A stretch of 64,000 nucleotides of DNA from positions 33,649-97,648 of the forward strand of contig CAMERI010000005.1 of the NCBI GenBank assembly GCA_945935525.1. Reading direction: 5' to 3'. This stretch comes from an uncultured bacterium. Its GTDB lineage: Bacteria; Bacillota_I; Bacilli_A; RF39; UBA660. The notes under the pieces were generated by a model, which was given only the letters and a program-made list of their open reading frames with translations, made no database searches and was not told the DNA's origin. Each line of letters begins with the position of its first letter. The first letter of the stretch is position 1. Below, one piece after another: positions 8,127-46,330 of the stretch. The position numbers were made by a program, and so were the translations under genes.

Positions 8127-8224
8127 TACATTAAATTGAAGTTACTTAAAAAGTAGCTTCTTTTTTTATATAAAATAAATGCTAAATAAATTTTTGATTG
8201 AGTCACGTACGAATATCTTTTTGC

Positions 8225-8253
8225 TTGACCGGGGAGGGGGTACATATTATAAT
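8225..8253 (+). promoter_or_regulatory. sigma-A-type promoter for the 8269 gene
   Basis: TTGACC (8225-8230), a 17 nt spacer that is unusually G-rich (GGGGAGGGGG), TATAAT (8248-8253). Confidence 0.5.
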
Positions 8254-8268
8254 AAAATAGGTGATAAT

Positions 8269-14388: not shown

Positions 14389-15597
14389 TTATGATGATTC
14401 ATCATTATTTTGATTATAATTATGTTCTAGATTATCAAAGAATTTTGGAACATTAGCCATCTCCTTTTTAAATAAATGTGTATATGTTTCTAATGTTTCT
14501 GTTGTCTCTGAATGACCTAGATAATTTGAAATAGCAGTTATTGGTGCTGCATTTGATATTAGAGCAGAAGCACAAGAATGTCTAAAGTCATGTATCCTAA
14601 TATGCTTAACTCCTGCTAGTTTTTGATATTTGTCTCTTCGACTATATATCTGATGATAGGAAATAGGTGTATCATCTCCAAAAACAAACCATGTATTTTT
14701 AAATTTACTAAAGAACTGATTGTTCTTTTTTAATTGCTCTAATTCCTTCATTAATACTGATGGAATAGGAATAGTTCTATTTGATGATTCTGTTTTAGGG
14801 CTTGAGATGTACCATTCACTATTTGCATTATTTGTAGATGGATTTAATACTTGTTGTGCAACTGTTAAAGTGCTGTTTTTAAAATCAATATGTTTCCATT
14901 GGAGTCCTCTTGCTTCAGATCTTCTTAGTCCACAATAATATAATATTTGAAATAAACATCTATCTCTTAAATATTCTATAACAGATAAGAATTTATAAAA
15001 TTCATCAGGTTCATAAAATTCCATTTCTTTTTTTATAGCACCTGGTGTTTTAAATGGCTCTAACTTGTTATAAAATTTTCTTAAGTTAAAATCCCATTGT
15101 TTTTCTGCAAAATTTATAACTTGTTTAATAAACTTTTGTATATCATTCTTATATCTATCACAAAGATTAGTTTTATTCATTTCTTTTCTCCATTTTTGAT
15201 ATAAATCCCAATTTAAATTGACTAATTCAACATTATCAAATAATCCCATATAAGCGATTCTATCTCTATATGTTTTAAGAGTAGAATCTTTTATTTTATC
15301 TTTTTGATATTCATAATATATTGTATAAGCCTCTTTAAATGTCATATGAGGATTAACATCTATATCTTTATATTTCTTTAAATATTCTTCCTCAGCCTGT
15401 TCAGCTTCTTTTTTTGTATAGTAAGTTGGAGACTGATATTGATGTCTTTTTCCATCTAATCCTTTGCTATATGCTACGAATGCCCATGATCTACCATCTT
15501 TAGTTACTTTATTTCCTTTTAATTGTCTTACAGACATAAATTTCTTTTTACCTCCTTTGTTTATATCTGCAAAAACATCGTGACTATATTTTATCAT
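14389..15597 (-). CDS. tyrosine site-specific recombinase (phage-type integrase)
   Basis: GLRRSEARGL (catalytic Arg), IRIHDFRHSCASALI (H-x-x-R), LGHSETTETLETYTHL (His and Tyr nucleophile). Confidence 0.9.
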   Translation of the reverse strand: MIKYSHDVFADINKGGKKKFMSVRQLKGNKVTKDGRSWAFVAYSKGLDGKRHQYQSPTYYTKKEAEQAEEEYLKKYKDIDVNPHMTFKEAYTIYYEYQKDKIKDSTLKTYRDRIAYMGLFDNVELVNLNWDLYQKWRKEMNKTNLCDRYKNDIQKFIKQVINFAEKQWDFNLRKFYNKLEPFKTPGAIKKEMEFYEPDEFYKFLSVIEYLRDRCLFQILYYCGLRRSEARGLQWKHIDFKNSTLTVAQQVLNPSTNNANSEWYISSPKTESSNRTIPIPSVLMKELEQLKKNNQFFSKFKNTWFVFGDDTPISYHQIYSRRDKYQKLAGVKHIRIHDFRHSCASALISNAAPITAISNYLGHSETTETLETYTHLFKKEMANVPKFFDNLEHNYNQNNDESS

Positions 15598-15605
15598 TAA
15601 TATAG

Positions 15606-17045
15606 TTATAATTCATAGTCATCGTGTGATTTTTGCTTGTTTTGTTCTTTATGACTACTAATGGTATTGCAAATAGATTCAAAAAATTCTATTGATTCTT
15701 TTTCTTCAATATGATTTTTTTTGACTAATTCTTCTGGCAGATTAACAAGTTTTTTAATAGCACGAAAAGCTGCATTTAAAGCATGAACAAATCTATTGAT
15801 TTTATCATTTAAAAAATCCACTACATTATTTAAATAGTGAATTTCTTGCTTTTGATCTTTAATTGTTTTTTCATGTTTATTAATTATTATATCTTTCTCT
15901 TTAATTGTATTATAAGCTTTTTGCAATTCTTTACCAGATTTTAAACCATTAACTTGATCATTTAATTTTTTTATTTCAATATCTTGCTTTCTAATAGTGT
16001 TCTTAGAAGATAGATTTTCTTTATTTACTTCTTTAGTATAACTAATAAGTTTCTCTATATCTTTATCCTTATATCTTTTAAAAACGTCCTTAGAAGGCGA
16101 TAATACTTCTTCTTGATTAAGATTTAGTATTTCTTCATTTGTTTTTAAATTAGCATTATTTATGCTTTCATAATGCTTAATTTCTCGTTGTAAGTTTTTA
16201 ATTTCTTTTTTAGTTTCTTTTAATTTATGTTCAGCTTTAGTTTGATGTTCTACATTAGCACCAACATTACCTCTATATAAATTAAAACCTTTTGAGGTAA
16301 TATATTCATTATATTTATCTTGAACTCTAGCATAGGATGATTTACCACCTAAATCTTTCCAGAATTGATCAAGATTTAGGAATTTGCCGGTTTCGGTTTT
16401 ATATATAGCTTTACCATTTTCATCTTTAGCTATGATAGGCACCATCTTTTTATTTCCATCTTTACCAGTAATCTCTTTTTTTAATATATTACCGTATTTA
16501 TCAGTTTCAAATACTTTCCTTTGAACTGAGTTTACTACTGGAGTGTAATAAAAATGCATATGTGGAGTATTTTCATCAAAATGAATTCCAGAATAAACAA
16601 CATTTTCTTTACCAACTAGATTACATAAGAATTCATGTGAGTATCTAAAATATTCTAAAACTTTTTCTGGAATATCATATTCAGAATTTATATTAACTCT
16701 TTCAATAGGTTCACCAGCATGTTCACCATATTGATGTACTTCTTCAGTAGGTACAAATTGCATACCTAATGATTTAAAAAATTCTTGTCCACTAGTTACA
16801 ACAACTCCACCAATTAAATTGATATTCTTTTTATTTTCTCCATATTGTACTTCATTAGATTTAAGAGTAGAGTAGACCTTACTCATTAAAGTTTGATTAT
16901 TTAAAGATACAAATTCTATATTATATTTAGTTCTTTCTAAATCATAATTACCTGTACCTTTTCTATCTTTAAGTTCTACACCAAGTCCTCCTAAATCCGA
17001 TGCTTTATATTTTTCAAATCTCATTACTTGATTTCCATCGAACAT
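15606..17045 (-). CDS. MobV-family (Mob_Pre) mobilization relaxase
   Basis: The N-terminus MRFEKYKASDLGGL and the motif GIHFDENTPHMHFYYTPVV (HxDExxPHxH) are MobV signatures. The C-terminus is a long coiled coil. Confidence 0.85.
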   Translation of the reverse strand: MFDGNQVMRFEKYKASDLGGLGVELKDRKGTGNYDLERTKYNIEFVSLNNQTLMSKVYSTLKSNEVQYGENKKNINLIGGVVVTSGQEFFKSLGMQFVPTEEVHQYGEHAGEPIERVNINSEYDIPEKVLEYFRYSHEFLCNLVGKENVVYSGIHFDENTPHMHFYYTPVVNSVQRKVFETDKYGNILKKEITGKDGNKKMVPIIAKDENGKAIYKTETGKFLNLDQFWKDLGGKSSYARVQDKYNEYITSKGFNLYRGNVGANVEHQTKAEHKLKETKKEIKNLQREIKHYESINNANLKTNEEILNLNQEEVLSPSKDVFKRYKDKDIEKLISYTKEVNKENLSSKNTIRKQDIEIKKLNDQVNGLKSGKELQKAYNTIKEKDIIINKHEKTIKDQKQEIHYLNNVVDFLNDKINRFVHALNAAFRAIKKLVNLPEELVKKNHIEEKESIEFFESICNTISSHKEQNKQKSHDDYEL

Positions 17046-17094
17046 TATTTACCTCCTTGATGTATTGAAAAAAATATTTTTTAGTTTATATAAG

Positions 17095-17125
17095 TTGACA
17101 AAAGTATAATTTTAGAGTTATACTT
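17095..17125 (+). promoter_or_regulatory. promoter/operator region of the XRE-ImmA module
   Basis: TTGACA (17095-17100) is followed by the perfect 8 bp inverted repeat AAGTATAA-N8-TTATACTT (17102-17125), which overlaps the -10 region. Confidence 0.4.
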
Positions 17126-17175
17126 ATGTCAAGTAAGAGAGATAAAAGTATCTTACTAAGAAAGGGAGCACAAAT

Positions 17176-17502
17176 ATGGAAGGGAAATTTGTAGAAAGAT
17201 TAAAAGAACTTATTGCGAGAGAAGATATCAAACAAAAAGATCTTGCTGAAGACGTAGGTATTACTGAAGCTGCATTATCAAGATATATGAAAGGTGATAG
17301 AACTCCACATGGTGAAACATTATGTAATCTTGCTACTGCTCTACATACTACAACAGATTACTTATTAGGTAGGGAAGATAAAGAAGATTTTAATAAGGAA
17401 ATCAGTTTTAATGAAATGCAAGGCTTACTTGCAAGAAGTTCAAAGAATTATTCTAGTGATCAAAATGATGAATTAATGCGAATAATTTTAAAAAACAAAT
17501 AA
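17176..17502 (+). CDS. XRE-family helix-turn-helix transcriptional regulator
   Basis: LKELIAREDIKQKDLAEDVGITEAALSRYMKGDRTP is a classic Cro/CI-type HTH. Confidence 0.85.
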   Translation: MEGKFVERLKELIAREDIKQKDLAEDVGITEAALSRYMKGDRTPHGETLCNLATALHTTTDYLLGREDKEDFNKEISFNEMQGLLARSSKNYSSDQNDELMRIILKNK

Positions 17503-17517
17503 TCAGGAGGTGAATTT

Positions 17518-18105
17518 ATGGCTAGAGTTAGGCTTAGAGATGAAAGGTATGAATACATAAAGAAAATAGTGGTTAAAACATTAAAAGAATGTAATATAAG
17601 GGAAATTCCAATTGATCCATTTTTAATATGCAAAGTAAGAGGATATAAATTAATAAAATATACAAAAAAATATACTAAAGAAGAAATGGAAGTAGTTTGT
17701 AGGAGATATCCTAATGGATTTAATTATGTTTTAAATGGTGAAAGAATAATTGAATATAATGACACTTTAGCACCAGAAAGAATTAGAACTACTATATTTC
17801 ACGAAATAGGACACATAGAGTTAAAACACACTTGTGAATGCTCACTAGCTGAAGCAGAAGCTGAATGGTTTGCTGTTTATATGATAGCACCACCACCATT
17901 AGTTAATTTATTTAATCTTGAAGATTCAATGGATTTAGCAATTAAGTTTGATACTTCTATGGAATGTGGTTATTACTCTATGGTTAGATATATAAAGTGG
18001 AAGAAATATACCTGGATTCTTAAAGACTATGAAAGAGAACTAGTCAAACAATTTACTGCTACTAATGAATATTTAATTAAGAAAGAAGAGGTGATGCAGA
18101 ATTGA
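17518..18105 (+). CDS. ImmA/IrrE-family metallopeptidase (anti-repressor protease)
   Basis: HEIGHIELKH (HExxH), and its position directly downstream of the XRE regulator. Confidence 0.8.
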   Translation: MARVRLRDERYEYIKKIVVKTLKECNIREIPIDPFLICKVRGYKLIKYTKKYTKEEMEVVCRRYPNGFNYVLNGERIIEYNDTLAPERIRTTIFHEIGHIELKHTCECSLAEAEAEWFAVYMIAPPPLVNLFNLEDSMDLAIKFDTSMECGYYSMVRYIKWKKYTWILKDYERELVKQFTATNEYLIKKEEVMQN

Positions 18106-18260
18106 TTGCAAATAAAAAGTACCTTGTTACTTGCGATAACAAAGTACTAAGAACCAATGATCAAATAGATCTGGTTACAAGTCTATTATATCATGAAGGT
18201 TCAAAATTTCAAAAATTATTTAAGAATATTATGTCAATTAATATTAGAAAGGAATGGTGA
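18102..18260 (+). CDS. possible 52-aa ORF with a TTG start
   Basis: A GAGGTGA RBS lies 7 nt upstream of the TTG. It fills the gap between immA and the cargo operon. No recognisable family. Confidence 0.25.
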   Translation: MIANKKYLVTCDNKVLRTNDQIDLVTSLLYHEGSKFQKLFKNIMSINIRKEW

Positions 18261-18305
18261 AAATCGTGAATAATAGACTTAAATCACCAATCAACAGGTG
18301 CTCAT

Positions 18306-19034
18306 ATGAGGAAAGTTGATGATATAGAAAGAAAAACTCGACTAGAATTTCTTAAAATACTTAATACTACTACACCATCTAAATCTGGTAGGATGCCAAA
18401 TCTAAAATATGATTTAGAAGTATATCCAGATTATTTGGCTTTATATAATGAGCCAGGTAAGTATACTAAAACATTATTAACAGCACCATGTTTCTATTTA
18501 TGGGATGAAAAATTTGATGATTATGATGGATTGCTAAATGCAATTAAATATAATATCGAGGATAAATTAGATTTTTATAAAAAGAGATTCCACGGTGTAA
18601 AAATGATAATATCACCTGATTACAGTCTAGTAGGAAATATTTATCCTACTATTAATGAAGGAAGAATATTTGATTCTAGACTAGTATCTCTTTGGTTTGC
18701 TAACGAACTAGGTATTGTATCAATACCTAATATGACTTATACAGATGAAAGTTCATTTCCTATGATGATTGATGGCATAGAGGAATGTAAAGTTGTATGT
18801 TTTAGTGCTATGTCTTGCCTAACTGATAAAGAAGATAGAAATAAACTAGAAAAAGCTATTAAATATACTGTTGATCATTTAAAACTAAATGCTATAGTAG
18901 TGTATACTTCAACTCCAAATGATGATAAAATTAATGATATATTTAAATATGCTATCGAAAAAAATGTTAAAATTATAATTCCTGATAATACTATTAGAGA
19001 ATCTAATAGGAGGAAGTTAAATGGGAAGAGTTAG
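18306..19034 (+). CDS. hypothetical protein, possibly DUF4417 family
   Basis: The length and the motifs FYLWDEKFD, ISPDYSL and VSIPNMTY recall DUF4417, but this is from memory only. Confidence 0.4.
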   Translation: MRKVDDIERKTRLEFLKILNTTTPSKSGRMPNLKYDLEVYPDYLALYNEPGKYTKTLLTAPCFYLWDEKFDDYDGLLNAIKYNIEDKLDFYKKRFHGVKMIISPDYSLVGNIYPTINEGRIFDSRLVSLWFANELGIVSIPNMTYTDESSFPMMIDGIEECKVVCFSAMSCLTDKEDRNKLEKAIKYTVDHLKLNAIVVYTSTPNDDKINDIFKYAIEKNVKIIIPDNTIRESNRRKLNGKS

Positions 19035-19497
19035 TGGGATAGGTGGAAGTACTGGAGTTGGTACTTCTGGACAATTATCATTACAACAACAAACTTACTC
19101 ATCACTTGTTCAGGGATTAGAAAATGTACTAAATAGTATTAAAACATATAATATTAATAAAAATGCAAAGGCAATGGCAAGTGAATATCCTACAACTAAA
19201 GGCGGGTACTTTGGTAAAAAAGGAACATCTAATAAAAAAAGAGTTATTTATACTGATAATCCAATATCAGAAGCTAATAATTTCTTTAATAAGATATCTA
19301 AAGGGTATTATTCTAAAACAATACATGGTAATGCTACAATAGTTCGTTTACCAGATGAGACTGTTATAACTTATAGAGTTATTACTAAGACTAGTAAAAG
19401 TGGTAATTCACCTGCAGTTGATATAAATATTAATAGTTCAAAAGCAAATCCTAAGATTAAAGGACAGAGAATACATTTTGAAAAGGAGAAGAAATAA
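19021..19497 (+). CDS. hypothetical small basic protein with a Gly-rich N-terminus (candidate toxin-like module)
   Basis: Overlaps the upstream stop. N-terminus GIGGSTGVGTSGQ. The C-terminal segment ITYRVITKTSKSGNSPAVDININ...RIHFEKE recalls the C-terminal modules of polymorphic toxins. Weak. Confidence 0.3.
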   Translation: MGRVSGIGGSTGVGTSGQLSLQQQTYSSLVQGLENVLNSIKTYNINKNAKAMASEYPTTKGGYFGKKGTSNKKRVIYTDNPISEANNFFNKISKGYYSKTIHGNATIVRLPDETVITYRVITKTSKSGNSPAVDININSSKANPKIKGQRIHFEKEKK

Positions 19498-19498
19498 A

Positions 19499-20035
19499 AT
19501 GATTAAACAAGAATTTAAAATAAAAGAAATAGAAATCTTAAAATCTTTGATTGGAAAAAAAATCATAAATATTAATTATACATATCCAGTATATGGAAAT
19601 ATTAAGATTGATTTTGATTTATATTCTGTTGTCATATCTAATTTAATGCATGAAGGAAGCTTAGCTGGAGATGATGATGACATTACGTACTTCACATTAG
19701 AGAAAATATCCAAAGAAGATAAATTTGAATTTTTCTTAAATGATGTTAAAACTGATAGTATTGAAGTTAATGAAACTATAAAGTCAATAGAGATTGTTAA
19801 TGATTTAATTAATTATAATGACGAGTATGAAATATCTTATGATGTAGCTATAGTCTTTATTACTGATAAACATAAGTATATTATTTCTAGAGATTGGTTC
19901 TATATGGAAACAATGCAAATAAATGTTGATAAAGATATAGATGATATTTTAGATAAAAATACTATTATTGAACAATATAGAGGAGAATCTACTGAAGTAA
20001 AAGTAGAAATAGAAAGAACTAGTAGAGAAATATAA
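19499..20035 (+). CDS. hypothetical acidic protein (candidate immunity-like partner)
   Basis: AAAAGGAGAAG RBS, with the start 2 nt after the upstream stop. Asp/Glu-rich. No recognisable family. Confidence 0.3.
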   Translation: MIKQEFKIKEIEILKSLIGKKIININYTYPVYGNIKIDFDLYSVVISNLMHEGSLAGDDDDITYFTLEKISKEDKFEFFLNDVKTDSIEVNETIKSIEIVNDLINYNDEYEISYDVAIVFITDKHKYIISRDWFYMETMQINVDKDIDDILDKNTIIEQYRGESTEVKVEIERTSREI

Positions 20036-20669: not shown

Positions 20670-21209
20670 ATGAAAATGGGAAAAGAAGAAAAAATAATAT
20701 TTGGTTTTATTTTATTATTTATATTCATTGGTACTGTTGGATTTAGTTATGGATATTTTCGTGCTGAGTTTGCATACAGTTCTGATGAAGTAGAGGTAAC
20801 AACTGGAACTTTAGAACTTAAATATAGTGATAATAGTCCATTAATATATAAGAATGGTTTTAAACCAGGTGAAACTATTACTAAAACTGTTACTGTAGAA
20901 AATACAGGTACGTTAGATGCAGTGTATGATTTAATATGGAAAGAATATAAAAATGAAATAATTAATGATGAGTTAACTATAAGTGCTGTATGTGATAGTA
21001 TGAATTCTAATGATATAATGAGTGGTAGTTGTACTAATGTAGAAGAAAAATCTGTTAGTGGGGATGCAATTAAAACCAAAGTTAGTATAAGCCCAGGCAT
21101 GAAACATAGATATAGTATAGTAATAACATTTAAGAATCTAGATGAAAGTCAAAATTATAATCAAGGTAAGACATTTAGTGGTATTATCAATGTTAAAGAT
21201 AGTAATTGA
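20670..21209 (+). CDS. stand-alone TasA/camelysin-like module with SipW-type signal peptide
   Basis: GFSYGYFRAE...GTLELKYSD...FKPGETITKTVTVENTGTLDAVYDLIW...QNYNQGKTFSG is collinear with the N-modules at 8269, 35107 and 45098. Confidence 0.7.
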   Translation: MKMGKEEKIIFGFILLFIFIGTVGFSYGYFRAEFAYSSDEVEVTTGTLELKYSDNSPLIYKNGFKPGETITKTVTVENTGTLDAVYDLIWKEYKNEIINDELTISAVCDSMNSNDIMSGSCTNVEEKSVSGDAIKTKVSISPGMKHRYSIVITFKNLDESQNYNQGKTFSGIINVKDSN

Positions 21210-21224: not shown

Positions 21225-22463
21225 ATGATTTTACAAATATGTGATAATCCAACTGTTTTGAGTGTAATGCGTATTGTTAATATTGCAATTTTAATTATTA
21301 AGATTGTTGTTCCAATATTATTAATTTTAACGGGTATGATAACACTTTTGAAAACTATTAAAGTAGTTGAAGAAGATTTACTTGCGAAAGCTAAAAAACA
21401 ACTTGTTAATAATTGTATTGCTGCAGTAGTTGTATTTTTTATACCTACTTTTGTTAGTGTATTAGTAAAAGTTTCTTTAACAAATGGTGAATATAAAGAT
21501 TGCTTAAGTAATACTTCAAGTGATGTAATTAATCAAAAGTATTATGACATAGCAGTTGATTCCATTAGTAAAGCTGAATCATCTTCTAAATATAATGATT
21601 ATTATGATGCTGTAAATAAAATTAATGAAATAAAAGATATTGATACAAAAAAATCTCTTAAAAAAAGACTTGATAATGTAAAAACTATTATTGATAAAAA
21701 AATAGAAGAAAATAATAAAAAAGAAAATATTAATAGTGGAACTAATAGTAATAGCGGGAGTAATAGCTCTAACACAACTATTTCTGATGCTAGTAATCCT
21801 GGTACATTCACGCCTGATAGTGGAAAAACTTCCAATTGTAATAAGAACGGAAAATATCAATTATGTTCTGCTAAAAAAGGAATCTTTGGATCATTTGCTT
21901 ACTATGATAAAGCAGCAGTAAATGATACATCTAATCGTAATAGTATTGAGATGGACCCATCATGGAAAAAAACAAATCTAGTTAATGTATCAACTACATG
22001 TTCTAATGGAACCAAATATAATTGGACTGTTCATAGACTTGCTTCTTCAACATGGAAAAAAGTTCAGGAAAAATTTTGTCAAATAATTACAGTTGGAATA
22101 GATGGAATAAAATATGAACCTAATCAAATAGTGGTTAGTGGACCTATATCTATACGATATATAAGTAATACCAAAACAATTAGTACTCATGCTTATGGAA
22201 TTGCAATAGATATAAATCCTAGCGAAAGCTATACTATTAATGGAAAAAAATATTCAACTCCTTATGGTAGAAGTTTAGAAAAATACAACAATTTTATAAA
22301 TGCTATAGGTGGCGAAAGCGATCCTAGAAATGTTAATTATGTTTTATGGAAAAAAGTTTTTGAACCACTTGGATTCATATGGGGCGGTAATTGGGGAAGA
22401 AATGGTAAAGGTACAAAAATAGATGGAATGCACTTTGAAATTGATTGGAGGAATGCTAGGTAA
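21225..22463 (+). CDS. two-TM N-terminal module fused to an M15-family (VanY / L-Ala-D-Glu peptidase-like) peptidoglycan metallopeptidase
   Basis: The N-module ICDNPTVLSVMRIVNIAILIIKIVVPILLILTGMITLLKTIK...CIAAVVVFFIPTFVSVLV is paralogous to the one at 7029. It has a Ser/Asn linker. The C-terminus reads HAYGIAIDINP...GFIWGGNW...DGMHFE. Confidence 0.7.
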   Translation: MILQICDNPTVLSVMRIVNIAILIIKIVVPILLILTGMITLLKTIKVVEEDLLAKAKKQLVNNCIAAVVVFFIPTFVSVLVKVSLTNGEYKDCLSNTSSDVINQKYYDIAVDSISKAESSSKYNDYYDAVNKINEIKDIDTKKSLKKRLDNVKTIIDKKIEENNKKENINSGTNSNSGSNSSNTTISDASNPGTFTPDSGKTSNCNKNGKYQLCSAKKGIFGSFAYYDKAAVNDTSNRNSIEMDPSWKKTNLVNVSTTCSNGTKYNWTVHRLASSTWKKVQEKFCQIITVGIDGIKYEPNQIVVSGPISIRYISNTKTISTHAYGIAIDINPSESYTINGKKYSTPYGRSLEKYNNFINAIGGESDPRNVNYVLWKKVFEPLGFIWGGNWGRNGKGTKIDGMHFEIDWRNAR

Positions 22464-23472: not shown

Positions 23473-24219
23473 ATGAATGAGATGAATGAAAACTTCGATG
23501 AGTTTGATAAGTACGTTATGGGTTTTGATTTTAATGAGGATATGATTGCATATAAATACAATCATTCATATAGAGTAATGCATCAATGTGATGAGATATC
23601 ATATACATTAAATTTAGATGAAGAAGATAATTATTTAACTTGTTTAATTGGATTATTACATGATTTTGGTAGATTTGAACAATGGACTAAATATAAATCA
23701 TTTGTAGATTCTGAAACTGTCGATCATGGAGATTTAGGAGAAGAATTATTATTTAAAAAAGGCTTAATTAAGAACTTTAAATTAGATGATGAGTTTTATG
23801 ATATAGTTTCTAAAGCTATAAAATATCATAATAAATATGAATTACCAGATGATTTAACATTACGTGAAAAGATGCATGCTAAGATAGTGAGAGATGCTGA
23901 TAAATTAGATATAATATATGCTTTTTCTACAATTAGACTTTTAGAACTTAAAGAGGATGATAGCAAAATAAGTGAAGAAGTAAAGAAGGAATTTTATTTA
24001 CATGAGCCAGTTAAACGAGTCAATTGTAAGACTGTTAATGATAAAATAATATTCTTATTATCATTTGCTTTTGATTTATATTATGACTATAGTAGAGGTT
24101 TATTATTAGATAAAGGTTATTATAATAGAATATTTGAAAATATAAAAGATAAAGATAAATTTAAGCCTTATTTTGATGAGGTAGAAAAATATTTAAGGGA
24201 GTGTGAAAATAATGCTTGA
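23473..24219 (+). CDS. HD-domain phosphohydrolase
   Basis: [10 protein letters not shown] (HD motif), VDHGDLG, RDADKLD. Confidence 0.75.
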
Positions 24220-26737
24220 TAAAAAATATAATCATAAAGAAGTAGAAAATGGAAAATATGAAATGTGGCTTAAAAGTCATTGCTTTGATGCAGGAGATAA
24301 GAGTAAAGATGCGTTTACTATAGTTATACCTCCACCTAATGTTACAGGTAATTTACATTTAGGTCATGCACTTAATGGTAGTATTCAAGATGTTATCATT
24401 AGATATAAAAAGATGAAAGGTTTTGATACTTTATGGCTTCCAGGAATGGATCATGCAGCTATTGCAACTGAAGCTAAAGTAGTTAATAGACTTAAAGAAA
24501 ATGGAATTAATAAATATGAGCTTGGTCGTGAAGGATTCTTAAAAGAATGTTGGAAATGGACTGATGAACATAGAAGTAATATTCATAAACAATGGGAAAC
24601 TTTAGGGCTTAGTGTGGATTATAGACGTGAGAGATTTACATTAGATGAAGGACTTAATGATGCGGTTAATGAAGTATTTATAAGACTATATAATGAAGGA
24701 TTAATCTATCGTGGTGAAAAGATTATTAACTGGGATCCAGTTGCTAAGACAGCTCTTTCAAATGAAGAAGTTATTTATAAAGATGATCCAGGAGCTTTCT
24801 ATCATATTAAATATTTTATTGAAGGAAGTGATAAGTATTTAGATGTAGCTACTACAAGACCTGAAACTTTATTTGGTGATACTGCTGTTGCTGTTAATCC
24901 AGAAGACGAGAGATATAAAGATTTAATTGGTAAGAATGTAGTACTTCCAATTGTTAATAAGTTAATACCTATTATAGGAGATGAACATGCTGATCCTGAG
25001 TTTGGTACTGGATGTGTTAAAATTACACCAGCACATGATCCTAATGACTTTGAAGTAGGCGAAAGACATAATTTAGAGAGAATTCTAATTATGAATGAAG
25101 ACGCTACAATGAATGAGAAAACTGGCAAATATAATGGAATGTCTCGTGAAAAGTGTAGAGAAGAATTACTTAAAGATTTAGAGAGTCAAGATTTATTAAT
25201 TAGCGTTGAAAAGATGACACATAGTGTAGGTCATTCTGAGAGAACTGATGCTGTAGTAGAGCCATATTTATCTAAACAATGGTTTGTTGATATGAGTGGT
25301 ATGAGTAAAGACTTATTAGATGCTCAAAAAGGTGGAGACAATAAAATTAACTTTATACCTAAGAGATTTGAAAAAGTATTAAATCACTGGATGGTAGACT
25401 GTCATGACTGGTGTATTAGTCGTCAATTATGGTGGGGACACAGAATTCCTGCTTGGTATAAAGGGGAAGACATTAAAGTACAAAAAGAATGTCCAGGTGA
25501 TGGATGGACTCAAGATGAAGACGTGTTAGATACTTGGTTTAGTAGTGCGTTATGGCCATTTAGTACTCTTGGTTGGCCAAATAAAACTGAAGACTTAGAA
25601 AGATATTTTCCAACTGATGTTCTTGTAACAGCATATGATATTATATTCTTCTGGGTTGCTCGTATGGCATTCTCATCACTTAAACAAATGAATAGCCGTC
25701 CATTTAAAGATTGTATTATTCATGGGCTTATTCGTGATAAACAAGGAAGAAAGATGTCTAAATCATTAGGAAACGGAATAGATCCAATGGATATGATAGA
25801 TGAATATGGATGTGATGCGTTAAGATTCTATCTAACAACAACATCTGCGATGGGAATGGATATACGTTTTGATACTGATAAAGTAGCTTCTACTTGGAAC
25901 TTTATTAATAAATTATGGAATGCATCAAGATTTGTACTTATGAAACTTGAAGGTTTCAAGAAGGAAGATTATTCACTTAAAAATTTAAATAAAGCAGATA
26001 AATGGATACTTACTAAGCTTAATGAAACAATTAAAAAAGTAACTAAATCTATGGATAAATATGAACTAAATAATGCAGGAAGTGAGTTATATTCATTTAT
26101 ATGGGATGATTTTTGTGATAAATATATAGAAATGTCTAAATTTAGTGAAAGCAATGAAACTAAGAGTACACTTTTATATACAATTACAGCTATAGTTAAA
26201 ATGATGCATCCATTTATGCCATTTGTTACTGAAGAAATGTATAGTAACTTTGGAATAAAAGATAGTGATATACTTCTTATGACTGAATATCCTACATATG
26301 ATAAAAAACTAGTATTCAAAAGTGAAACTAAAGAAATAGATGAAATGCTTGAATATGTAACATTATTTAGAAATAAAAAGACTGAAAGTAAAATAACAAG
26401 TGAATTTGAAGTAATAGATTATAATAATAATGAACTATTAAATAAGATGCTTAAATTAACTGATAAAATAGTTGGTGAAAGTAAATATAAAGATAAACTT
26501 ACTATTGAGTTATATAATTATAAATTTGATCTATTCTTTGATAACTCTAAAAATAATCTTGAAGAAGAGTTAAGACGTAAAGAAGAAATAGAGAAGTTAG
26601 AAGCATCTATTAGTCGTCGTAAGAAATTATTATCAAATGAAAATTATGTAAATAAAGCACCTGAAGCTATAGTTAATAAAGAAAGAGAAGACTTAGAAAA
26701 GGAAGAAAAGAGACTAGAAATTCTTAAAAAGAACTAG
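24212..26737 (+). CDS. valS: valine--tRNA ligase
   Basis: [14 protein letters not shown] (HIGH), KMSKSLGN (KMSKS), and the C-terminal coiled coil. Start at 24212 ([12 protein letters not shown]); the GTG at 24203 is an alternative. Confidence 0.97.
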
Positions 26738-27020
26738 TCTTTTTATTTTATTTGTGTTAATCTATAAATATAAGGTAGGTGAGACATGAAAAGAAGTCTT
26801 GGTTTTACATTAGTAGAGTTACTTGCTGTTATAGCAATACTTGGTATAATAACTCTTATTGCAGTACCAAATGCTATTAAATTATATAATGAAGCAATAT
26901 TAAAAGAAATGGTTGTTCAAGAAAGTAATATTAAGAATGCTGCTAATATATATTTAGAAGATTATTGTAATTCTAAATTAGATGATAGGCTTATATGTCC
27001 ATCTAGTTATGAAGAAGTTA
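26733..27020. repeat. tandem duplication, copy 1: terminator/promoter/RBS plus pilin 5' region
   Basis: ACTAGTCTTTTTATTTTATTTGTGTTAATCTATAAATATAA is identical to 28648 onward. A 74 nt block in the pilin N-terminus is also identical, and identity is then about 80% out to roughly +235. Confidence 0.8.
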
Positions 27021-28639
27021 ATAATAAAGATGAAAAATATGTTTGTTTAAGTGACTTGCAAGAAGCAAATGATTCATACATAGGAAGTGTTAAATATAAG
27101 AAAGATTCTTGTAAAGGTATTATTGTATATAAAAAAGATAAAGATACTGATTTATATACAGATGCTAAAACATATTTATATTGTGGTAATAGTGATACTG
27201 GAGAATATAATTATATAACTGATGAAACTATTAATCCTGCTGATTATTCAAGATGTAATATTAAATTAAATAATGAAATGTATTATTTTAATGTTATGGA
27301 AGAAAAATTATCTGAGATTCATTTAATACTTCAAAGAGAAAATGAGTTAGTAGTACAAATGAGTAATGAAACAAATACTTCTAATGATAGAGAAAAAATA
27401 AAAAAAGAAATACAAGAACTTAATAAAGAAATAAATATTCTATATGATTTTAAATATTTAGATGCGATGATATTACATAAAGATAATATTTTAACTGGTA
27501 AATACGTAGTTAAAGTTGTTAGTAGTAGTGGTTTAAAACTTGATAGTTTAACATTTAATGATTATGTAAAAGATGAAGATACTGTTAAAAAAGCAATTAA
27601 AGATGTAAGTTATTTTAGAAGTTATATAGGAGCAGAAGAAAATGCTTTAGAATATAGATTAGAATTTAATAAATGTGAAAATGATAGTTGTAAACTTGAT
27701 ATAGTTAAAAATATGGTTATGAGAATATATGAGTTATCTTATAATGCTACATATAATAATACTTATATTGATGATGATTTGGTGAATATAAATCTTGAAA
27801 TACAAAAGTTATTTGATAACTTAGATGTGTTTTCTAAAAAAACGGATAATTCTTCAATAAGTAAAAGTATTGTATTTCCTAATGGAAAAGATGTATTAAA
27901 TAAAAATAATAGTAAGATAATATATGAAGAAGCTAGTTCATATTTAAAAAATATTAAGAGTGATTTAAATACATCGGCTGCTTGGGAAGACGAAGTATCT
28001 ATGTATGAAACGGCTAAGGGTGCTTTGAGTAATATCATTAGTATAACTGATAGGCAAAGTGAATTAATTAATAATTGTATTAGTAATTCCTCAGTTAATG
28101 ATGAATTAAATGAACTATATAATGAAATAGAAAATATTAAAAATAATACTACTTTTAATACTAATAAAATATTAAGTGATAGTACTTATTATAAAGATTA
28201 TTTATTATATGATTTAAGTGATAATGATCTTAAAAATATAAGTTGTTCTAATAGTAAATCTTCTAGTGTGATAAGTAAGTATCAAAGAAAAATAAATTTA
28301 AATATTGTGAGTATAAATGCTAATATAGATAAAGCTAAAGTATTGATAGACTTTGTTAAATGTAATGATTCATCTTGTGTTTTAGATGTGGTTAAGGGTA
28401 TATTAAATACTATGATTGGTCTTAGTGACAAGGCTATGAGTGTAGGTGATATTTTGAGAGAAGAATATAATATAGAATACACTACATATTTTAAAGCTCT
28501 TAACCATATAGCGTTAATAAGCAAAAATGATAGTTATAGTACTAAGAGTCTTGGAATAGATAATACTAATATATTAACTCTTGAGAATGCTAAAAGTGCT
28601 AAAGAAGTGTTAAATAGTAAAATTTCTAATATAAAATAG
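26786..28639 (+). CDS. type IV prepilin-like protein fused to two flagellin D1-like modules
   Basis: Prepilin signal MKRSLG/FTLVELLAVIAILGIITLIAVPNA. Flagellin-like segments are HLILQRENELVVQMSN, AIKDVSYFRSYIGAEENALEYRLEFN and ETAKGALSNIISITDRQSELINN. Confidence 0.7.
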   Translation: MKRSLGFTLVELLAVIAILGIITLIAVPNAIKLYNEAILKEMVVQESNIKNAANIYLEDYCNSKLDDRLICPSSYEEVNNKDEKYVCLSDLQEANDSYIGSVKYKKDSCKGIIVYKKDKDTDLYTDAKTYLYCGNSDTGEYNYITDETINPADYSRCNIKLNNEMYYFNVMEEKLSEIHLILQRENELVVQMSNETNTSNDREKIKKEIQELNKEINILYDFKYLDAMILHKDNILTGKYVVKVVSSSGLKLDSLTFNDYVKDEDTVKKAIKDVSYFRSYIGAEENALEYRLEFNKCENDSCKLDIVKNMVMRIYELSYNATYNNTYIDDDLVNINLEIQKLFDNLDVFSKKTDNSSISKSIVFPNGKDVLNKNNSKIIYEEASSYLKNIKSDLNTSAAWEDEVSMYETAKGALSNIISITDRQSELINNCISNSSVNDELNELYNEIENIKNNTTFNTNKILSDSTYYKDYLLYDLSDNDLKNISCSNSKSSSVISKYQRKINLNIVSINANIDKAKVLIDFVKCNDSSCVLDVVKGILNTMIGLSDKAMSVGDILREEYNIEYTTYFKALNHIALISKNDSYSTKSLGIDNTNILTLENAKSAKEVLNSKISNIK

Positions 28640-28647
28640 ACTAGATT

Positions 28648-28935
28648 ACTAGTCTTTTTATTTTATTTGTGTTAATCTATAAATATAAAGTAGGTGAGAT
28701 ATGAAGAGGAACAGTGGTTTTACATTAGTAGAGTTACTTGCTGTTATAGCAATACTTGGTATAATAACTCTTATTGCAGTACCAAATGCAATTAGTTTAT
28801 ATAATGAAGGTGTAATTAAAAAAATGATAGTAGAAGAATCTAATATAAGAGATGCTGCTAATATGTATTTAGAAGATTATTGCTTATCTAAATTAGATGA
28901 TAGACTTGTATGTCCTTCTAGTTATGAAGATGGTA
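28648..28935. repeat. tandem duplication, copy 2
   Basis: See copy 1 at 26733. Confidence 0.8.
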
Positions 28936-29201
28936 TTTATGATGCAGCAAGTGATAAAATAGTAGAAAAGTATGTATGTTTAAGCGAATTAACTAATGAT
29001 ACTAATAGTTATTTAAGAGGAAGAGTTAACTATAAAAAACAAGCTTGTAATGGATTTGTAACATACTATTATGATAGTGAATTAGGTACTTATGAAAATC
29101 CTAAAACATATTTATTTTGTGGTGAAGGTGATAATGGATATTTCACTGATAAGAATATAGATACTAAAAGATATTGTAAATGTTTTAATAATTGTGATTA
29201 G
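28701..29201 (+). CDS. type IV pilin / ComGC-like pseudopilin
   Basis: MKRNSG/FTLVELLAVIAILGIITLIAVPNA. Its Cys-containing globular domain is collinear with residues 1-160 of the 26786 protein. Confidence 0.8.
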   Translation: MKRNSGFTLVELLAVIAILGIITLIAVPNAISLYNEGVIKKMIVEESNIRDAANMYLEDYCLSKLDDRLVCPSSYEDGIYDAASDKIVEKYVCLSELTNDTNSYLRGRVNYKKQACNGFVTYYYDSELGTYENPKTYLFCGEGDNGYFTDKNIDTKRYCKCFNNCD

Positions 29202-35106: not shown

Positions 35107-36198
35107 ATGAAAGATAAAAAATTAATATTTGGAATTGCTTTAGCCTTTGTATTTCTAGCTAGTTTTGGTTTTTCTTATGCATATTTTAGTAATTCAATTG
35201 TTATAAAGATGTAAAAGATCAAGTGGTTGAAACAGGTTCACTTAGTTTAAGGTATGTAGATGGGCCAAAGATAGTAATGAATAATATTAAGCCAGATGAT
35301 ACTTTTACTAAGACTATTTATGTAGCTAATACCGGTACAATGGAAGTAACATATAATCTTATATGGCAGGAGTTGGTTAATGAAATAGAAAATAATGAAA
35401 TGGTTTTGAGTGCTACATGCACTAGAATGAATGGAACTACTGAGAAGGAAGATGGTGCTTGTAATGATATAGAGGATATGCCTATCTATGATACAACAAT
35501 TAAAAAGAAGATTGTTATTGAACCAAATATCGTTCATAAATATGATTTGACTATAACTTTTTTAGAATTAAATGATAATCAGAATTATAATCAAGGAAAG
35601 AAGTTTAATGGTGTTTTAGGTAAACATAATATTAGAATTGCAAATACTACGACACCTGGTGAATGTTCAACTACTGGTTTTTCTCAAACTGCATGTGGAT
35701 TTGTTATTGAGTTTGAAGATGGAATTACTACACATGTAATGAATAGTACACGTACTAATGTTGGAGGATGGCCAGCAAGTGAAATATACTCATATTTGAA
35801 TACTGATTTATATAACATGCTTCCAACTGATTTAAAAAGAACTATTATAGATACAACAATAGTTAGTAGTTATGGCAGCAGTGATTCAAATAATTTTACA
35901 TCAACTGACAAATTGTATTTATTAGTTCCAAAAGAAATATATAGTGGGTTTTCCAGCACATATGATACTGCAAAAAAATTTAACTAGACAATTATATTAT
36001 TATAATAATATAGGTATTACTGTAAGCAATTATTCAGGCACTATTAAAAAGTATGGAACTACCGCATCTGTATGGTGGCTTTGCTCGGCTCATTCTTATG
36101 ACTACTATGATTTCTATACTGTTATTAGAAGTGGTGATTTGAGCGATGCTAGTGCTTATGGCATCTGTGTTATTTCACCTGCATTTAGAATAGGATAA
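35107..36198 (+). pseudogene. disrupted TasA-like N-module fused to a WWL(C/R)S...PAFRIG C-terminal module (paralogue of 45098)
   Basis: Three frames are needed to read it. There is a 1 nt deletion near 35200-35204 (compare ATTGTTATAAAGATG here with ATTGCTAATAAAGATG at 45190) and an extra A in the A7 run at 35972-35978. An in-frame deletion of about 45 aa follows GVLG relative to 45098. Confidence 0.8.
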
Positions 36199-45097: not shown

Positions 45098-46330
45098 ATG
45101 AAGTATAAAGATAAAACGATGTTATTTGGTATAGGAATAGTATTTTTATTTTTGGCAACAGTAGGATTTAGTTATGCATATTTTAGTAATGCTATTGCTA
45201 ATAAAGATGTAAAAGATCAAGTGGTAGAGACTGGTACATTAAGTTTAAGATATGTAGATGGATCAGAGATAGTTATGAATAATATCAAGCCAGGAGATAC
45301 TATTACAAAGACAGTTTATGTTGCGAATACTGGTACACTTGATGCAGTATACAATCTTGTGTGGCAAGAGTTAAATAATGAGATTACAAATGACGAAATG
45401 TCAATTGATGGAGTTTGTATTAAAGTTGATAGTACTACTGAAAAGGAAGATGGATTTTGTGGTTTAGTGAGTTCTATAATAGTTGAAAATGTTATTGAAA
45501 AGAAAATAACTATAGAACCAAATATAGTTCATAAGTATTAGTTAACTATTACATTTAAAGATACAAAAGCGGATCAAAACTATAATCAAGGAAAAAAATT
45601 TAGTGGAGTTTTAGGAGTAGAAGAATATGTTCCTTCTCAATTTGAAAAAGATAGTTGGACTACAATAATTACTAATGTTAAAAATGGTAACATTTCAGAT
45701 TATAACCTTGGTGATACTAAAGAAGTTGATCTAGGTGATTTAGGAAAACATAATGTTAGAATAGCAAATACTTCAACACCTAGTGAATGCTCTACTGAAG
45801 GATTTTCACAAACTGCATGTGGATTTGTTCTTGAATTTGAAGATATAATTGATCAAAAACAAATGAATAATGATTATATTAGTACTGGAGGATGGCCTGC
45901 ATCAGAGATATATACTTATGTTACTGATACTATATATAATAAATTTCCAGCTGATTTAAAAGATTCTATTATAGATACAACTGTAGTTAGTGGACATGGG
46001 ACTAAAGATTCTTCTAATTTTACTTCTATAGATAAAGTTTATTTGTTAGCACGAAAAGAAATATATAGTCTTTGGAATGATTCATATGATTCGGCAAAAG
46101 ATTTAACTAGACAATTAGATTATTATACTAGCAAGAATGTTACTAAAGGTAATTACTCAGGAGCTATCAAAAAATATGGTACTACTTTTATAACTGCGGA
46201 AGAATGGTGGTTGCGTTCTGCTAATTCTTTTATGGGTGGTACTTTCTATGGCGTTTCTGATAGTGGTAAATCAGTCAATTATACTGCTAATTTTAAAAAT
46301 GGTATTTCACCAGCTTTTAGAATTGGATAG
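45098..46330 (+). pseudogene. TasA-like N-module fused to a WWLRS...PAFRIG C-terminal module, interrupted by one in-frame TAG
   Basis: A single reading frame runs from 45098 to 46330, interrupted only by TAG at 45539-45541. At that position the paralogues have Asp (HKYDLTITF versus HKY*LTITF). I translated 45542-45862 and found it fully open. Confidence 0.75.

Follow-up and report, generated by a model that had tools for sequence, protein, structure and literature searches.

Type IV pilins are the subunits of a filament system unrelated to flagella. In these proteins a long alpha1 helix packs against a head of antiparallel beta-strands, which has a Cys pair at its C-terminal end (the D-region). 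Their class III signal peptide consists of a short, basic leader that closes with Gly and a hydrophobic stretch of ~21 residues in which position +5 is Glu. In flagellins, type III export depends on the D0 helices, which also build the inner core of the filament and are needed for its packing, and D1 is the polymerisation core of the flagellum and the epitope read by TLR5. Modular type IV pilins are known from Streptococcus sanguinis, in which PilB combines a pilin with a vWA domain and PilC combines a pilin with a lectin (PMC8179133; PMC9934059). In such pilins the grafted module itself carries out a function of the pilus, adhesion for instance. Two other systems resemble the protein described here. 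Archaellins likewise have a type IV pilin-like N-terminus on the subunit of a "flagellar" filament, and Sphingomonas sp. A1 p5 (2zbi, 3k8v, 3k8w) is a flagellin fold put to a non-swimming use at the cell surface.

We analysed a stretch of 64 kb (the window). The host is an uncultured low-GC gut bacterium. The 617-aa ORF that the preliminary description had placed on this DNA was found at 26786-28639 on the plus strand, and its features and flanks are as follows.

26733..26785, plus strand: region upstream of the fusion gene, with a valS-distal hairpin then a T-run, an AT-rich promoter-like stretch and the RBS GGTAGGTGAG
26786..28639, plus strand: fusion gene, 617-aa ORF, modular type IV prepilin with flagellin-D1-derived C-terminal modules
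26786..26803, plus strand: class III signal-peptide leader MKRSLG, ending at Gly-1, the predicted prepilin-peptidase site
26804..27265, plus strand: mature pilin module, residues 7-160, with alpha1 helix, beta-sheet head and six invariant Cys
27272..27676, plus strand: unit U1, residues 163-297, with the C-terminal half of ND1a, ND1b, beta-hairpin and CD1 helix
27674..27691, plus strand: CENDSC, an invariant CxxxxC in the turn that follows the CD1-like helix in U1
27677..27976, plus strand: unit U2, residues 298-397, a degenerate flagellin N-hairpin (RIYEL...D..I..E.Q.LF..LD.F...FPNG), then a short helix
27977..28360, plus strand: unit U3, residues 398-525, the second D1-like unit, with the LafA match at 401-499
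28361..28636, plus strand: unit U4, residues 526-617, the second degenerate unit, opening with the invariant CNDSSC (28361-28378)
28638..28655, plus strand: terminator-like hairpin and T-run, immediately 3' of the fusion stop codon
28701..29201, plus strand: plain type IV prepilin gene, 166 aa, N_methyl 34.1 bits, head as in the fusion

The layout of the fusion is that of a modular type IV pilin. It begins with a class III signal peptide and a full small pilin module, from which a short linker leads to a bulky domain that is not pilus-specific, and a plain pilin is encoded beside it. Its head corresponds to the entire 166-aa neighbour, the linker is ~6 residues long and the extra domain is Flagellin_N. 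The lineage of the fusion also has pilin-DUF285 proteins (IPR005046), an architecture that is included in the catalogue of Raynaud et al. 2021 (PMC8179133). Unlike the catalogued modular pilins, the fusion carries flagellin D1-derived units in tandem as its cargo. Flagellin entries IPR001029, IPR001492 and PF00669 do not occur in the text portion of Dataset S1 of the catalogue (264 architectures; PMC8179133), and a full-text literature search found no report of a pilin-flagellin fusion. To the extent of that search, the earlier assertion that no described architecture combines the two holds; the fusion falls within the concept of the modular type IV pilin, which was already known. The fusion widens the modular-pilin repertoire to a cargo class outside the published catalogue, as far as the text of its dataset goes.

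The N-terminus reads MKRSLG / FTLVELLAVIAILGIITLIAVPNA, with Gly-1, Phe+1 and Glu+5, as first described. Pfam N_methyl PF07963 (26.9 bits; cut-off 21.2) and NCBIfam TIGR02532 IV_pilin_GFxxxE (22.8 bits; cut-off 16.3) both scored above their cut-offs. Prepilin motifs occur just twice in the six frames of the window, in the fusion ORF and in the neighbouring 166-aa pilin. Across 18 fusion homologues G6, T8, L9 and E11 are invariant and F7 nearly so; the six Cys of the pilin head (C61, C71, C87, C109, C133 and C157) are also invariant. PDB pilins were matched at the N-terminus (9egp, 1.2e-4; MshA, 1.3e-3; 3sok, 4.6e-3). Residues 1-157 share 59% identity with the adjacent pilin (E 3e-64), which bears out the proposal of a shared head of ~160 aa. 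In the full-length AF2 model, the pilin part has a helix at 9-62 and strands at 83-87, 109-117, 124-135 and 140-144, with pLDDT 55-84 for the head and <50 for residues 1-35. The signal peptide, the alpha1 helix and the beta-sheet head of a type IV pilin are thus all present, and C133 and C157 occupy the place of the D-region Cys pair, with a predicted disulfide.

The two window pilin genes begin almost alike. The upstream region at 26733..26785 is near-duplicated before the 166-aa pilin gene (53/56 nt match 28648-28700), and the near-identity continues through the first ~145 coding nt; in the 5' alignment of the two genes, nt 72-146 match at 100%. A promoter consensus scan upstream of the fusion gene gave no signal above chance; the AT-rich stretch is a putative promoter. 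Two terminator-like sites were seen against 0.2 expected, and both are the palindrome at 28638..28655, one per strand. The near-identical upstream 53 nt and first ~145 coding nt hint at co-assembly of the two pilins, and the 166-aa protein is probably a partner subunit of the fusion.

The ~455 aa after the pilin head consist of flagellin-D1-like helices. Pfam Flagellin_N PF00669 matched the fusion at 53.5 bits (cut-off 26.6) in two stretches, the better of which places residues 172-222 on positions 75-126 of the 139-position profile. NCBIfam flagellin Hag matched residues 170-220 and LafA matched residues 401-499 (both 1e-16). In phmmer against the PDB, residues 167-303 aligned with residues 72-225 of Roseburia hominis flagellin 9hpz_A (E 3.6e-10), and the alignment spans ND1a, ND1b and the CD1 "RSxLGAxQNxLE" helix. 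When residues 163-617 were compared with a library of 1.84 billion representatives, 442 proteins were matched; outside the fusion's own family nearly all of these are flagellins, matched at canonical position ~residue 76. An origin of this part from FlgL/FlgK fits less well (FlgL 2e-7; flagellin 1e-16).

AF2 modelling gave pLDDT 84.8 and pTM 0.75 for the full-length fusion and pLDDT 91.7 and pTM 0.86 for the module alone. With the module model, all 25 of the top 25 Foldseek matches were flagellins (probability 1.00), although the best E value was modest (1.5e-3). TM against the D1-only crystal structures 5z7q and 5gy2_C was 0.62, normalised to target, and local matches to FliC D1 covered ~110 residues with RMSD 2.4-3.2 A. 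The full-length model gave weak matches (E 0.03). Profile matches, PDB flagellins and two confident models with flagellins as best structural matches thus agree with the earlier reading of residues 170-617 as flagellin D1.

Like D1 of Hag and FliC (PF00669), the fusion has an ND1a-ND1b-beta-hairpin-CD1 bundle in both its sequence and its predicted fold, with ND1a represented by its C-terminal half. It keeps the flagellin motifs LQRxxEL..Q..N.TN, DRxxIxxE, an FNG-like hairpin and RSxLGAxxNxLE, as well as the TLR5-related R/L/I/E. Unlike Hag and FliC, it has neither ND0 nor CD0, and the N-terminal half of ND1a is missing. Positions 1-74 of the flagellin profile and chain residues 1-71 and 226-270 of 9hpz_A (chain 270) are unmatched. 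Only ~6 residues separate C157, the last pilin Cys, from the first D1 helix (H164), and the N-terminus is that of a prepilin; the D0 termini are therefore lacking, as had been claimed. The Pfam comparison proposed in the preliminary description gave a divided result: N_methyl and Flagellin_N scored above cut-off, but Flagellin_C PF00700 was below threshold and did not match the fusion even at E<=1. A further difference from Hag and FliC is the type IV prepilin export signal in place of a type III signal, and no flagellar genes were found among the scanned ORFs of the window. The fusion cannot act as a flagellin, because it lacks the D0 helices on which type III export and the packing of the filament depend; a true flagellin was ruled out by this absence together with the missing Flagellin_C match and flagellar neighbours.

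In the C-terminal part a two-unit module is present in duplicate, (U1-U2)x2, with a full D1-like unit and a degenerate N-hairpin in each copy. Comparison of family slices by hhalign related U1 (163-297) to U3 (398-525) and U2 (298-397) to U4 (526-617), each with 96% probability, and U1 to U2 with 85% over 39 columns; BLASTP between the module halves gave E 1e-4. U3 also matched PDB Hag (5wjx_A, 1.6e-5; 5gy2_C, 6.8e-5). In the PDB, the U2 profile alone found hardly anything but flagellins (3v47_C, E 1.9e-5), with U2 positions 8-63 on FliC 80-135; the fusion thus has four flagellin N-hairpins in all, and those of U1 and U3 are followed by a CD1-like helix. AF2 helices lie at 164-192, 199-220 and 260-296 in U1 and at 300-323, 329-353 and 373-387 in U2. 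The duplication into two tandem modules is thus as previously described, but each module consists of two units rather than one.

Flagellins are typically Cys-free. The fusion family has twelve invariant Cys, mostly in apparent pairs, and this supports an extracytoplasmic location. The paired-Cys motifs CENDSCKLD and CNDSSCVLD noted earlier contain C297/C302 and C526/C531, which are invariant in the 18 homologues and are predicted to form disulfides. The CxxxxC turn of each D1-like unit sits where D0 would start in a flagellin. In contrast to those of Hag and FliC, the D1 units of the fusion are internal, repeated and, by prediction, Cys-stapled. This natural chimera indicates that flagellin D1 is usable as a stand-alone extracellular module that is repeated, has predicted Cys staples and would leave the cell by way of the pilin export signal.

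The comparison with the two other systems leads to similar distinctions. The globular domains of archaellins are unrelated to bacterial flagellin, whereas the cargo of the fusion is true bacterial-flagellin-derived sequence, and the fusion, unlike archaellins, shows no sign of rotation or motility. Chains of Sphingomonas sp. A1 p5 are among both the sequence and the fold matches of the fusion; however, p5 is a stand-alone flagellin homologue without repeats, whereas the D1 units of the fusion are grafted on a pilin.

We consider it likely that the fusion is a modular type IV pilin whose D1 array is displayed on pili. A prepilin peptidase would cleave the leader after Gly-1, and a type IV pilus machinery with its genes in another part of the genome would extract the protein from the membrane and polymerise it via the alpha1 helix. 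The fusion would assemble with the adjacent 166-aa pilin, to which it is near-identical in alpha1N and in the regulatory region, and the flagellin-derived array would thereby be exposed on the cell exterior, either at the pilus tip or at scattered points of the fibre. By analogy, the putative role of the displayed array is likely binding or host interaction. A Pfam scan of the window ORFs revealed no pilB, pilC or pilD, and this lack of assembly genes is in keeping with another arrangement, in which the signal peptide serves only to insert or anchor the protein in the membrane, or to release it through type II secretion or a Com-like pseudopilus, and the product is a surface or secreted helical protein with no extended pilus. 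The lineage puts the same cargo domains on a second N-terminal module, camelysin/TasA-like PF12389, so a pilus is not its sole display route, and another multi-D1 class ("GITLLALV") has a pilin-like helix that lacks Glu5 and does not score as a prepilin. We nevertheless regard such an arrangement as unlikely, since Gly-1, Phe+1 and Glu+5 are invariant or nearly so in the family, the whole pilin head is kept with its conserved Cys pairs under a dN/dS of 0.19, tighter than that of the cargo, and a conserved T2SSE ATPase (PF00437, 415 bits) adjoins pilin genes in a related Bacilli MAG. A search for the T2SSE Walker motif across all loci found machinery only in related MAGs (L024 and L072). Close homologues of the ATPase number thousands in the database, and the few that are named come from Bacilli MAGs.

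Between valS and secDF, related genomes have a slot whose modular-pilin cassettes vary. In a 20-kb locus of a 756-kb scaffold (L080), the slot holds three tandem two-module fusions, with no plain pilin within 10 kb. In another genome (L088), a one-module fusion stands between pilin-LRR_5 and pilin-DUF285 genes. In an NCBI Hadza MAG (L001), genes for pilin-DUF285-DUF6273 and pilin-DUF6273 come after the fusion, and no plain pilin adjoins it. The pilin head of the fusion is also found alone, as the 166-aa neighbour, and on DUF285 (50-59% identity); in P0028-P0080 a head of this type is joined to DUF285 with or without DUF6273. Because the slot swaps these cassettes, the D1 array appears to be used like the repeat-type cargos LRR_5 and DUF285. 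The hypervariable valS-secDF modular-pilin locus is likely a main determinant of surface interactions in these reduced-genome Bacilli. The upstream and RBS sequences shared by the fusion and plain-pilin genes, and the three fusions of L080, fit poorly with a low-abundance minor pilin.

A major-subunit role, which those shared upstream and RBS sequences would also suit, would give a filament with a type IV core in a flagellin-D1-derived sheath, in which lateral D1-D1 contacts stiffen or thicken the fibre; the role of the array would then be structural or mechanical instead of ligand binding. The tandem fusions of L080 and the fusion of L001, each without a plain pilin nearby, are consistent with this, as is the conservation of residues that take part in D1 packing in flagellar filaments. 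However, no known major pilin is so large, and flagellin fragments that lack D0 are not known to polymerise. The one-module version of L088, placed between pilins with LRR-type cargo, points to exchangeable display modules, and modular pilins are proposed to be sparse or to sit at the tip (PMC8179133). A major-subunit role is accordingly improbable compared with display of the array by a modular pilin.

The TLR5 hot spot of B. subtilis flagellin comprises R89, L93, I111 and E114, and D0 also contributes to TLR5 activity (PMC5247705). Alignment with Bacillus chains 8jmv, 5wjx and 5gy2_C places R184/L188/I205/E208 of module 1 and R423/L427/V437/E440 of module 2 on these residues, in line with the initial identification of LQRxxELxVQ as the TLR5-recognised region. 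Not every family member keeps the hot-spot Arg: module 1 can have K, N or S there, and module 2 can have E or Q. To judge from these alignments, the flagellin surface recognised by TLR5 may be displayed on a pilus. The host-interaction or decoy role put forward in the preliminary description stays a conjecture. In a probably non-flagellated gut commensal, pili with D0-less D1 arrays might bind TLR5, as an adhesin or as a ligand that signals weakly or not at all ("silent" or antagonistic), or might bind the flagellin D1 surfaces of other bacteria; we hold this proposal to be unlikely. If docking to TLR5 or flagellin were true, a flagellin pattern-recognition epitope would have been naturally re-used outside the flagellum. 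It is now a testable question of host-microbe interaction whether TLR5 is bound, activated or blocked by D0-less D1 arrays from this abundant gut lineage, which is uncultured.

The search for homologues in related genomes, as suggested earlier, yielded ~27 protein clusters with the pilin-flagellin architecture at 46-99% identity (ENA, Logan and NCBI assemblies). All seven of the fusion DNA copies examined (7/7) are intact. Relative to an 81%-identical orthologue, dN/dS was 0.33 overall, 0.19 for the pilin module and 0.37-0.40 for U1-U4; the distant comparisons (L080 and L001) were saturated and were left out. The value of ~0.4 in the modules indicates moderate constraint only. The pilin-flagellin junction recurs with the same neighbours in a 99%-identical ENA contig of another sample (L086), and it is also present in a Logan assembly (L085), in L080 and in L001. 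With the junction in four independent assemblies, every copy an intact ORF with dN/dS <1, and an equivalent fusion on another pilin head in the distant P0228 family, an assembly chimera of pilin and flagellin genes or a decaying pseudogene is exceedingly improbable. Two sets of candidates were rejected as members. L004, which matched residues 1-258, is a pilin with non-flagellin cargo, and the "GITLLALV" multi-D1 proteins (P0230-P0233, P0325 and P0238) have N-termini with no significant prepilin score and were kept apart as a class of their own.

P0228/P0415 is the sole other clear pilin-flagellin family that was found. Its proteins (537-538 aa, on low-GC metagenome contigs) have a prepilin signal (TIGR02532, 35.8 bits) followed by U1-U2-U3 and a CxxxxC motif (CADEAC), and they align with the window family along the entire cargo. 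They differ from the window fusion in having another pilin head, no U4 and another genomic context. Their D1 units are nearer to canonical flagellins, with Flagellin_N at 92 bits and Flagellin_C at 24.0 bits (cut-off 23).

The window has a G+C content of ~26% and carries ordinary chromosomal genes (nusA, infB, valS, secDF, relA, dtd, mutS, frr, xseA, spoIVB, mgtE, uppS, ispH, ruvX, mltG and tig). A six-frame search across the 64-kb window revealed only two prepilin motifs, those of the fusion and the plain pilin. On the far flank, opposite valS, the pair is followed by a ComN-like gene, then secDF.

24203-26737: valS, flanking the pilin pair on one side
26786-28639 (+): fusion prepilin gene (617 aa)
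28701-29201 (+): plain prepilin gene (166 aa)
26733-26785 and 28648-28700: near-identical upstream sequences of the pilin genes

The fusion begins MKRSLG/FTLVELLAVIAILGIITLIAVPNA and scored 26.9 bits against Pfam N_methyl (cut-off 21.2) and 22.8 bits against NCBIfam TIGR02532 (cut-off 16.3), in agreement with the prepilin signal claimed in the preliminary description. The claim of a pilin head common to both proteins was also borne out: fusion residues 1-157 matched the entire plain pilin (59% identity, E 3e-64), and the fusion thus holds a complete pilin, not a signal peptide alone. The head has six invariant Cys. AlphaFold2, run with the family alignment (n = 18 sequences), placed a long α1 helix (9-62) upon a β-sheet (83-144), with low confidence for residues 1-35. 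The two genes have 53 of 56 upstream nt in common, including the RBS GGTAGGTGAG; their α1N coding regions share one 100%-identical stretch, similarity decays further on, and a terminator-like hairpin lies 3′ of the fusion gene. This pattern indicates a tandem duplication with homogenised 5′ ends, probably under common regulation.

The C-terminal array resembled flagellin D1, as had been proposed. Pfam Flagellin_N matched two stretches of the fusion (53.5 bits; cut-off 26.6), and NCBIfam flagellin Hag and LafA matched residues 170-220 and 401-499, respectively (1e-16 each). The best PDB-sequence match was Roseburia hominis flagellin 9hpz_A (E 3.6e-10), in an alignment spanning ND1a, ND1b and up to the CD1 helix; the second module by itself matched B. 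subtilis Hag (1.6e-5). When residues 163-617 were run exhaustively with HMMER against 1.84 billion representatives, 442 proteins matched; outside the fusion's own family, almost all were flagellins, aligned at canonical position ~residue 76. AlphaFold2 models of the full-length fusion (pLDDT 84.8, pTM 0.75) and of the module only (pLDDT 91.7, pTM 0.86) both had flagellins as best PDB fold matches in Foldseek (probability 1.00), with target-normalised TM 0.62 to the D1-only crystal structures 5z7q and 5gy2_C and local matches to FliC D1 over ~110 residues (RMSD 2.4-3.2 Å). Foldseek E-values were modest (best 1.5e-3); the modelled fold supports the sequence evidence and does not stand alone. Flagellin profile positions 1-74 and flagellin chain residues 1-71 and 226-270 had no match in the fusion; D0 is missing, as first described. 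The last pilin Cys and the first D1 helix are only ~6 residues apart. The fusion cannot be a working flagellin.

Slices of the family alignment were compared profile against profile to define units U1-U4. U1 (163-297) matched U3 (398-525) and U2 (298-397) matched U4 (526-617), each with 96% probability; U1 matched U2 with 85% across the LQRxxEL...D..I..E hairpin. A U2-only profile retrieved PDB flagellins and almost nothing else (best 1.9e-5, matching FliC 80-135). By these matches, the cargo is a full D1-like unit plus a degenerate flagellin N-hairpin unit, twice over. The duplication seen in the preliminary description therefore stands, but each of its two modules is two units, not one. The paired-Cys motif that it noted after each module is an invariant CxxxxC in the turn that ends each CD1-like helix (C297/C302, C526/C531). 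P0026 (389 aa), a natural one-module version with pilin plus U1-U2, confirms U1-U2 as the evolutionary unit. Taken together, the analysis showed that a prepilin signal and complete pilin lead, through a short linker, into a Cys-stapled array derived from flagellin D1.

In the distant P0228/P0415 family, a bona fide prepilin with another head precedes U1-U2-U3 and a CADEAC motif. The D1 units of this family lie much nearer canonical flagellins than do those of the fusion, which supports descent of the fusion cargo from a real flagellin. A separate class (P0230, P0231, P0233, P0325, P0238, P0232) has a pilin-like N-terminal "K-G-ITL(L/I)ALV" hydrophobic helix, with neither Glu5 nor a significant prepilin score, then 2-3 near-canonical D1 modules; its members occur as tandem paralogues amid housekeeping genes (L082 8329-11902). 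One 1374-aa protein carries Flagellin_N twice, SpaA and an LPXTG anchor. Since both carry D1 units, flagellin D1 appears to have been recruited at least twice as a module of surface proteins.

The slot between valS and secDF is a variable modular-pilin cassette site.

Window: fusion and plain pilin
L080 (related 756-kb scaffold): three fusions in tandem
L088 (related locus): pilin-LRR_5, one-module fusion, pilin-DUF285

In proteins P0028-P0080 of this lineage the same pilin head (50% identity) is joined to DUF285 alone or to DUF285 plus DUF6273, and in L001, an NCBI Hadza-gut MAG, a fusion gene lies between rpmF and ppa beside pilin-DUF285-DUF6273 and pilin-DUF6273 genes. Pilin genes of the lineage directly follow housekeeping genes (valS, proS/pheST with a T2SSE ATPase, rpmF/ppa), as at L024 6117-10900, L001 9613-12384 and L088 1962-8798, and every one of them is preceded by a near-identical sequence of its own. 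The fusion shares the "modular pilin" design of S. sanguinis PilB/PilC. The available part of a catalogue of 264 modular-pilin architectures includes pilin-DUF285 and has no flagellin entry (PMC8179133), and a full-text literature search found no prior report of a pilin-flagellin fusion, consistent with the initial statement that no described one was known. Among the known modular type IV pilins, the fusion represents a new cargo class.

A camelysin/TasA-like N-terminal domain (PF12389) was also fused to DUF285 or DUF6273, cargo borne by relatives' pilins.

Window: 8179-9633, 20670-21209, 35223-35987, 45098-45541, 45863-46330
L001: 5599-7659

This suggests that two alternative N-terminal display modules, pilin and PF12389, draw on one cargo pool. 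Two pairs, 35223-35987/35944-36198 and 45098-45541/45863-46330, look like genes that have been split or frameshifted.

In a related MAG, a T2SSE ATPase (415 bits) adjoins pilin genes; its close homologues are abundant in the database, the few named being Bacilli MAGs. At least some assembly machinery is therefore present in the lineage, as seen in that MAG. Prepilin peptidase would cleave the fusion leader, the protein would polymerise via α1N into a type IV pilus alongside the 166-aa pilin, and the array would be displayed extracellularly. Because the locus swaps the array with LRR-type cargo domains, we regard it as likely to be a displayed binding or host-interaction module. That the fusion is instead membrane-anchored or secreted, outside any pilus, is unlikely. 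A major, sheath-forming subunit would fit the identical promoter and RBS of the two genes and the L080 locus, where three copies stand in tandem and no plain pilin is near, but the large protein size and the exchangeable slot contents make this role very unlikely.

The fusion architecture recurs in ~27 clusters (90% identity clustering), 46-99% identical to the window protein. The fusion gene has the same neighbours in a 99%-identical ENA contig (L086), a Logan assembly (L085) and L080, and the gene recurs in L001, which answers the suspicion of a chimera; all 7 DNA copies are intact. Against an 81%-identical orthologue, dN/dS was 0.19 for the pilin module and 0.37-0.40 for U1-U4, which points to purifying selection that is looser on the cargo, a pattern usual in surface proteins. 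Several independent assemblies, intact copies and dN/dS leave a negligible probability for an artefact. Public records label the hosts uncultured Bacilli, Mollicutes, Tenericutes and "Clostridium sp. CAG:524", from human and animal guts.

As anticipated, the flagellin region recognised by TLR5 has a counterpart in the array, here in both modules: the B. subtilis hot spot R89/L93/I111/E114 (PMC5247705) aligns with R184/L188/I205/E208 and R423/L427/V437/E440. Within the family alignment, neither module varies at the hot-spot Leu and E208 is almost invariant; the Arg is substituted in some members and E440 in two. In flagellin, E114 supports R89 by an intramolecular hydrogen bond (PMC5247705), so by analogy Arg/Glu conservation may be structural, not functional. 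D0, absent here, also contributes to TLR5 activity (PMC5247705). For both reasons, TLR5 binding by the array, silent or antagonistic, is offered as a hypothesis, not a finding, and we consider it decidedly doubtful.

A small, integrative, mobilisable island (14389-20035), where GC skew flips, also lies in the window.

14389-15597 (-): tyrosine integrase
15606-17045 (-): Mob_Pre relaxase
17518-18105: IrrE-like M78 peptidase
18306-19034: DUF4417 gene

ORF 55378-57264 (-) combines LytB/IspH and polyprenyl synthetase domains. An S55 peptidase of the SpoIVB type that carries a PDZ domain is encoded at 48471-49448; alongside genes for PBP, MltG and M15 peptidase, it suggests that this Bacilli lineage has a wall and possibly sporulates. 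Some records label relatives of this 26% GC genome Mollicutes or Tenericutes. A 412-aa protein (21225-22463), conserved at both syntenic loci, L080 and L088, has an N-terminal membrane segment weakly like a T4SS pilin (E 0.0027) that an Asn/Ser-rich linker connects to an M15 D-Ala-D-Ala carboxypeptidase domain at the C-terminus.
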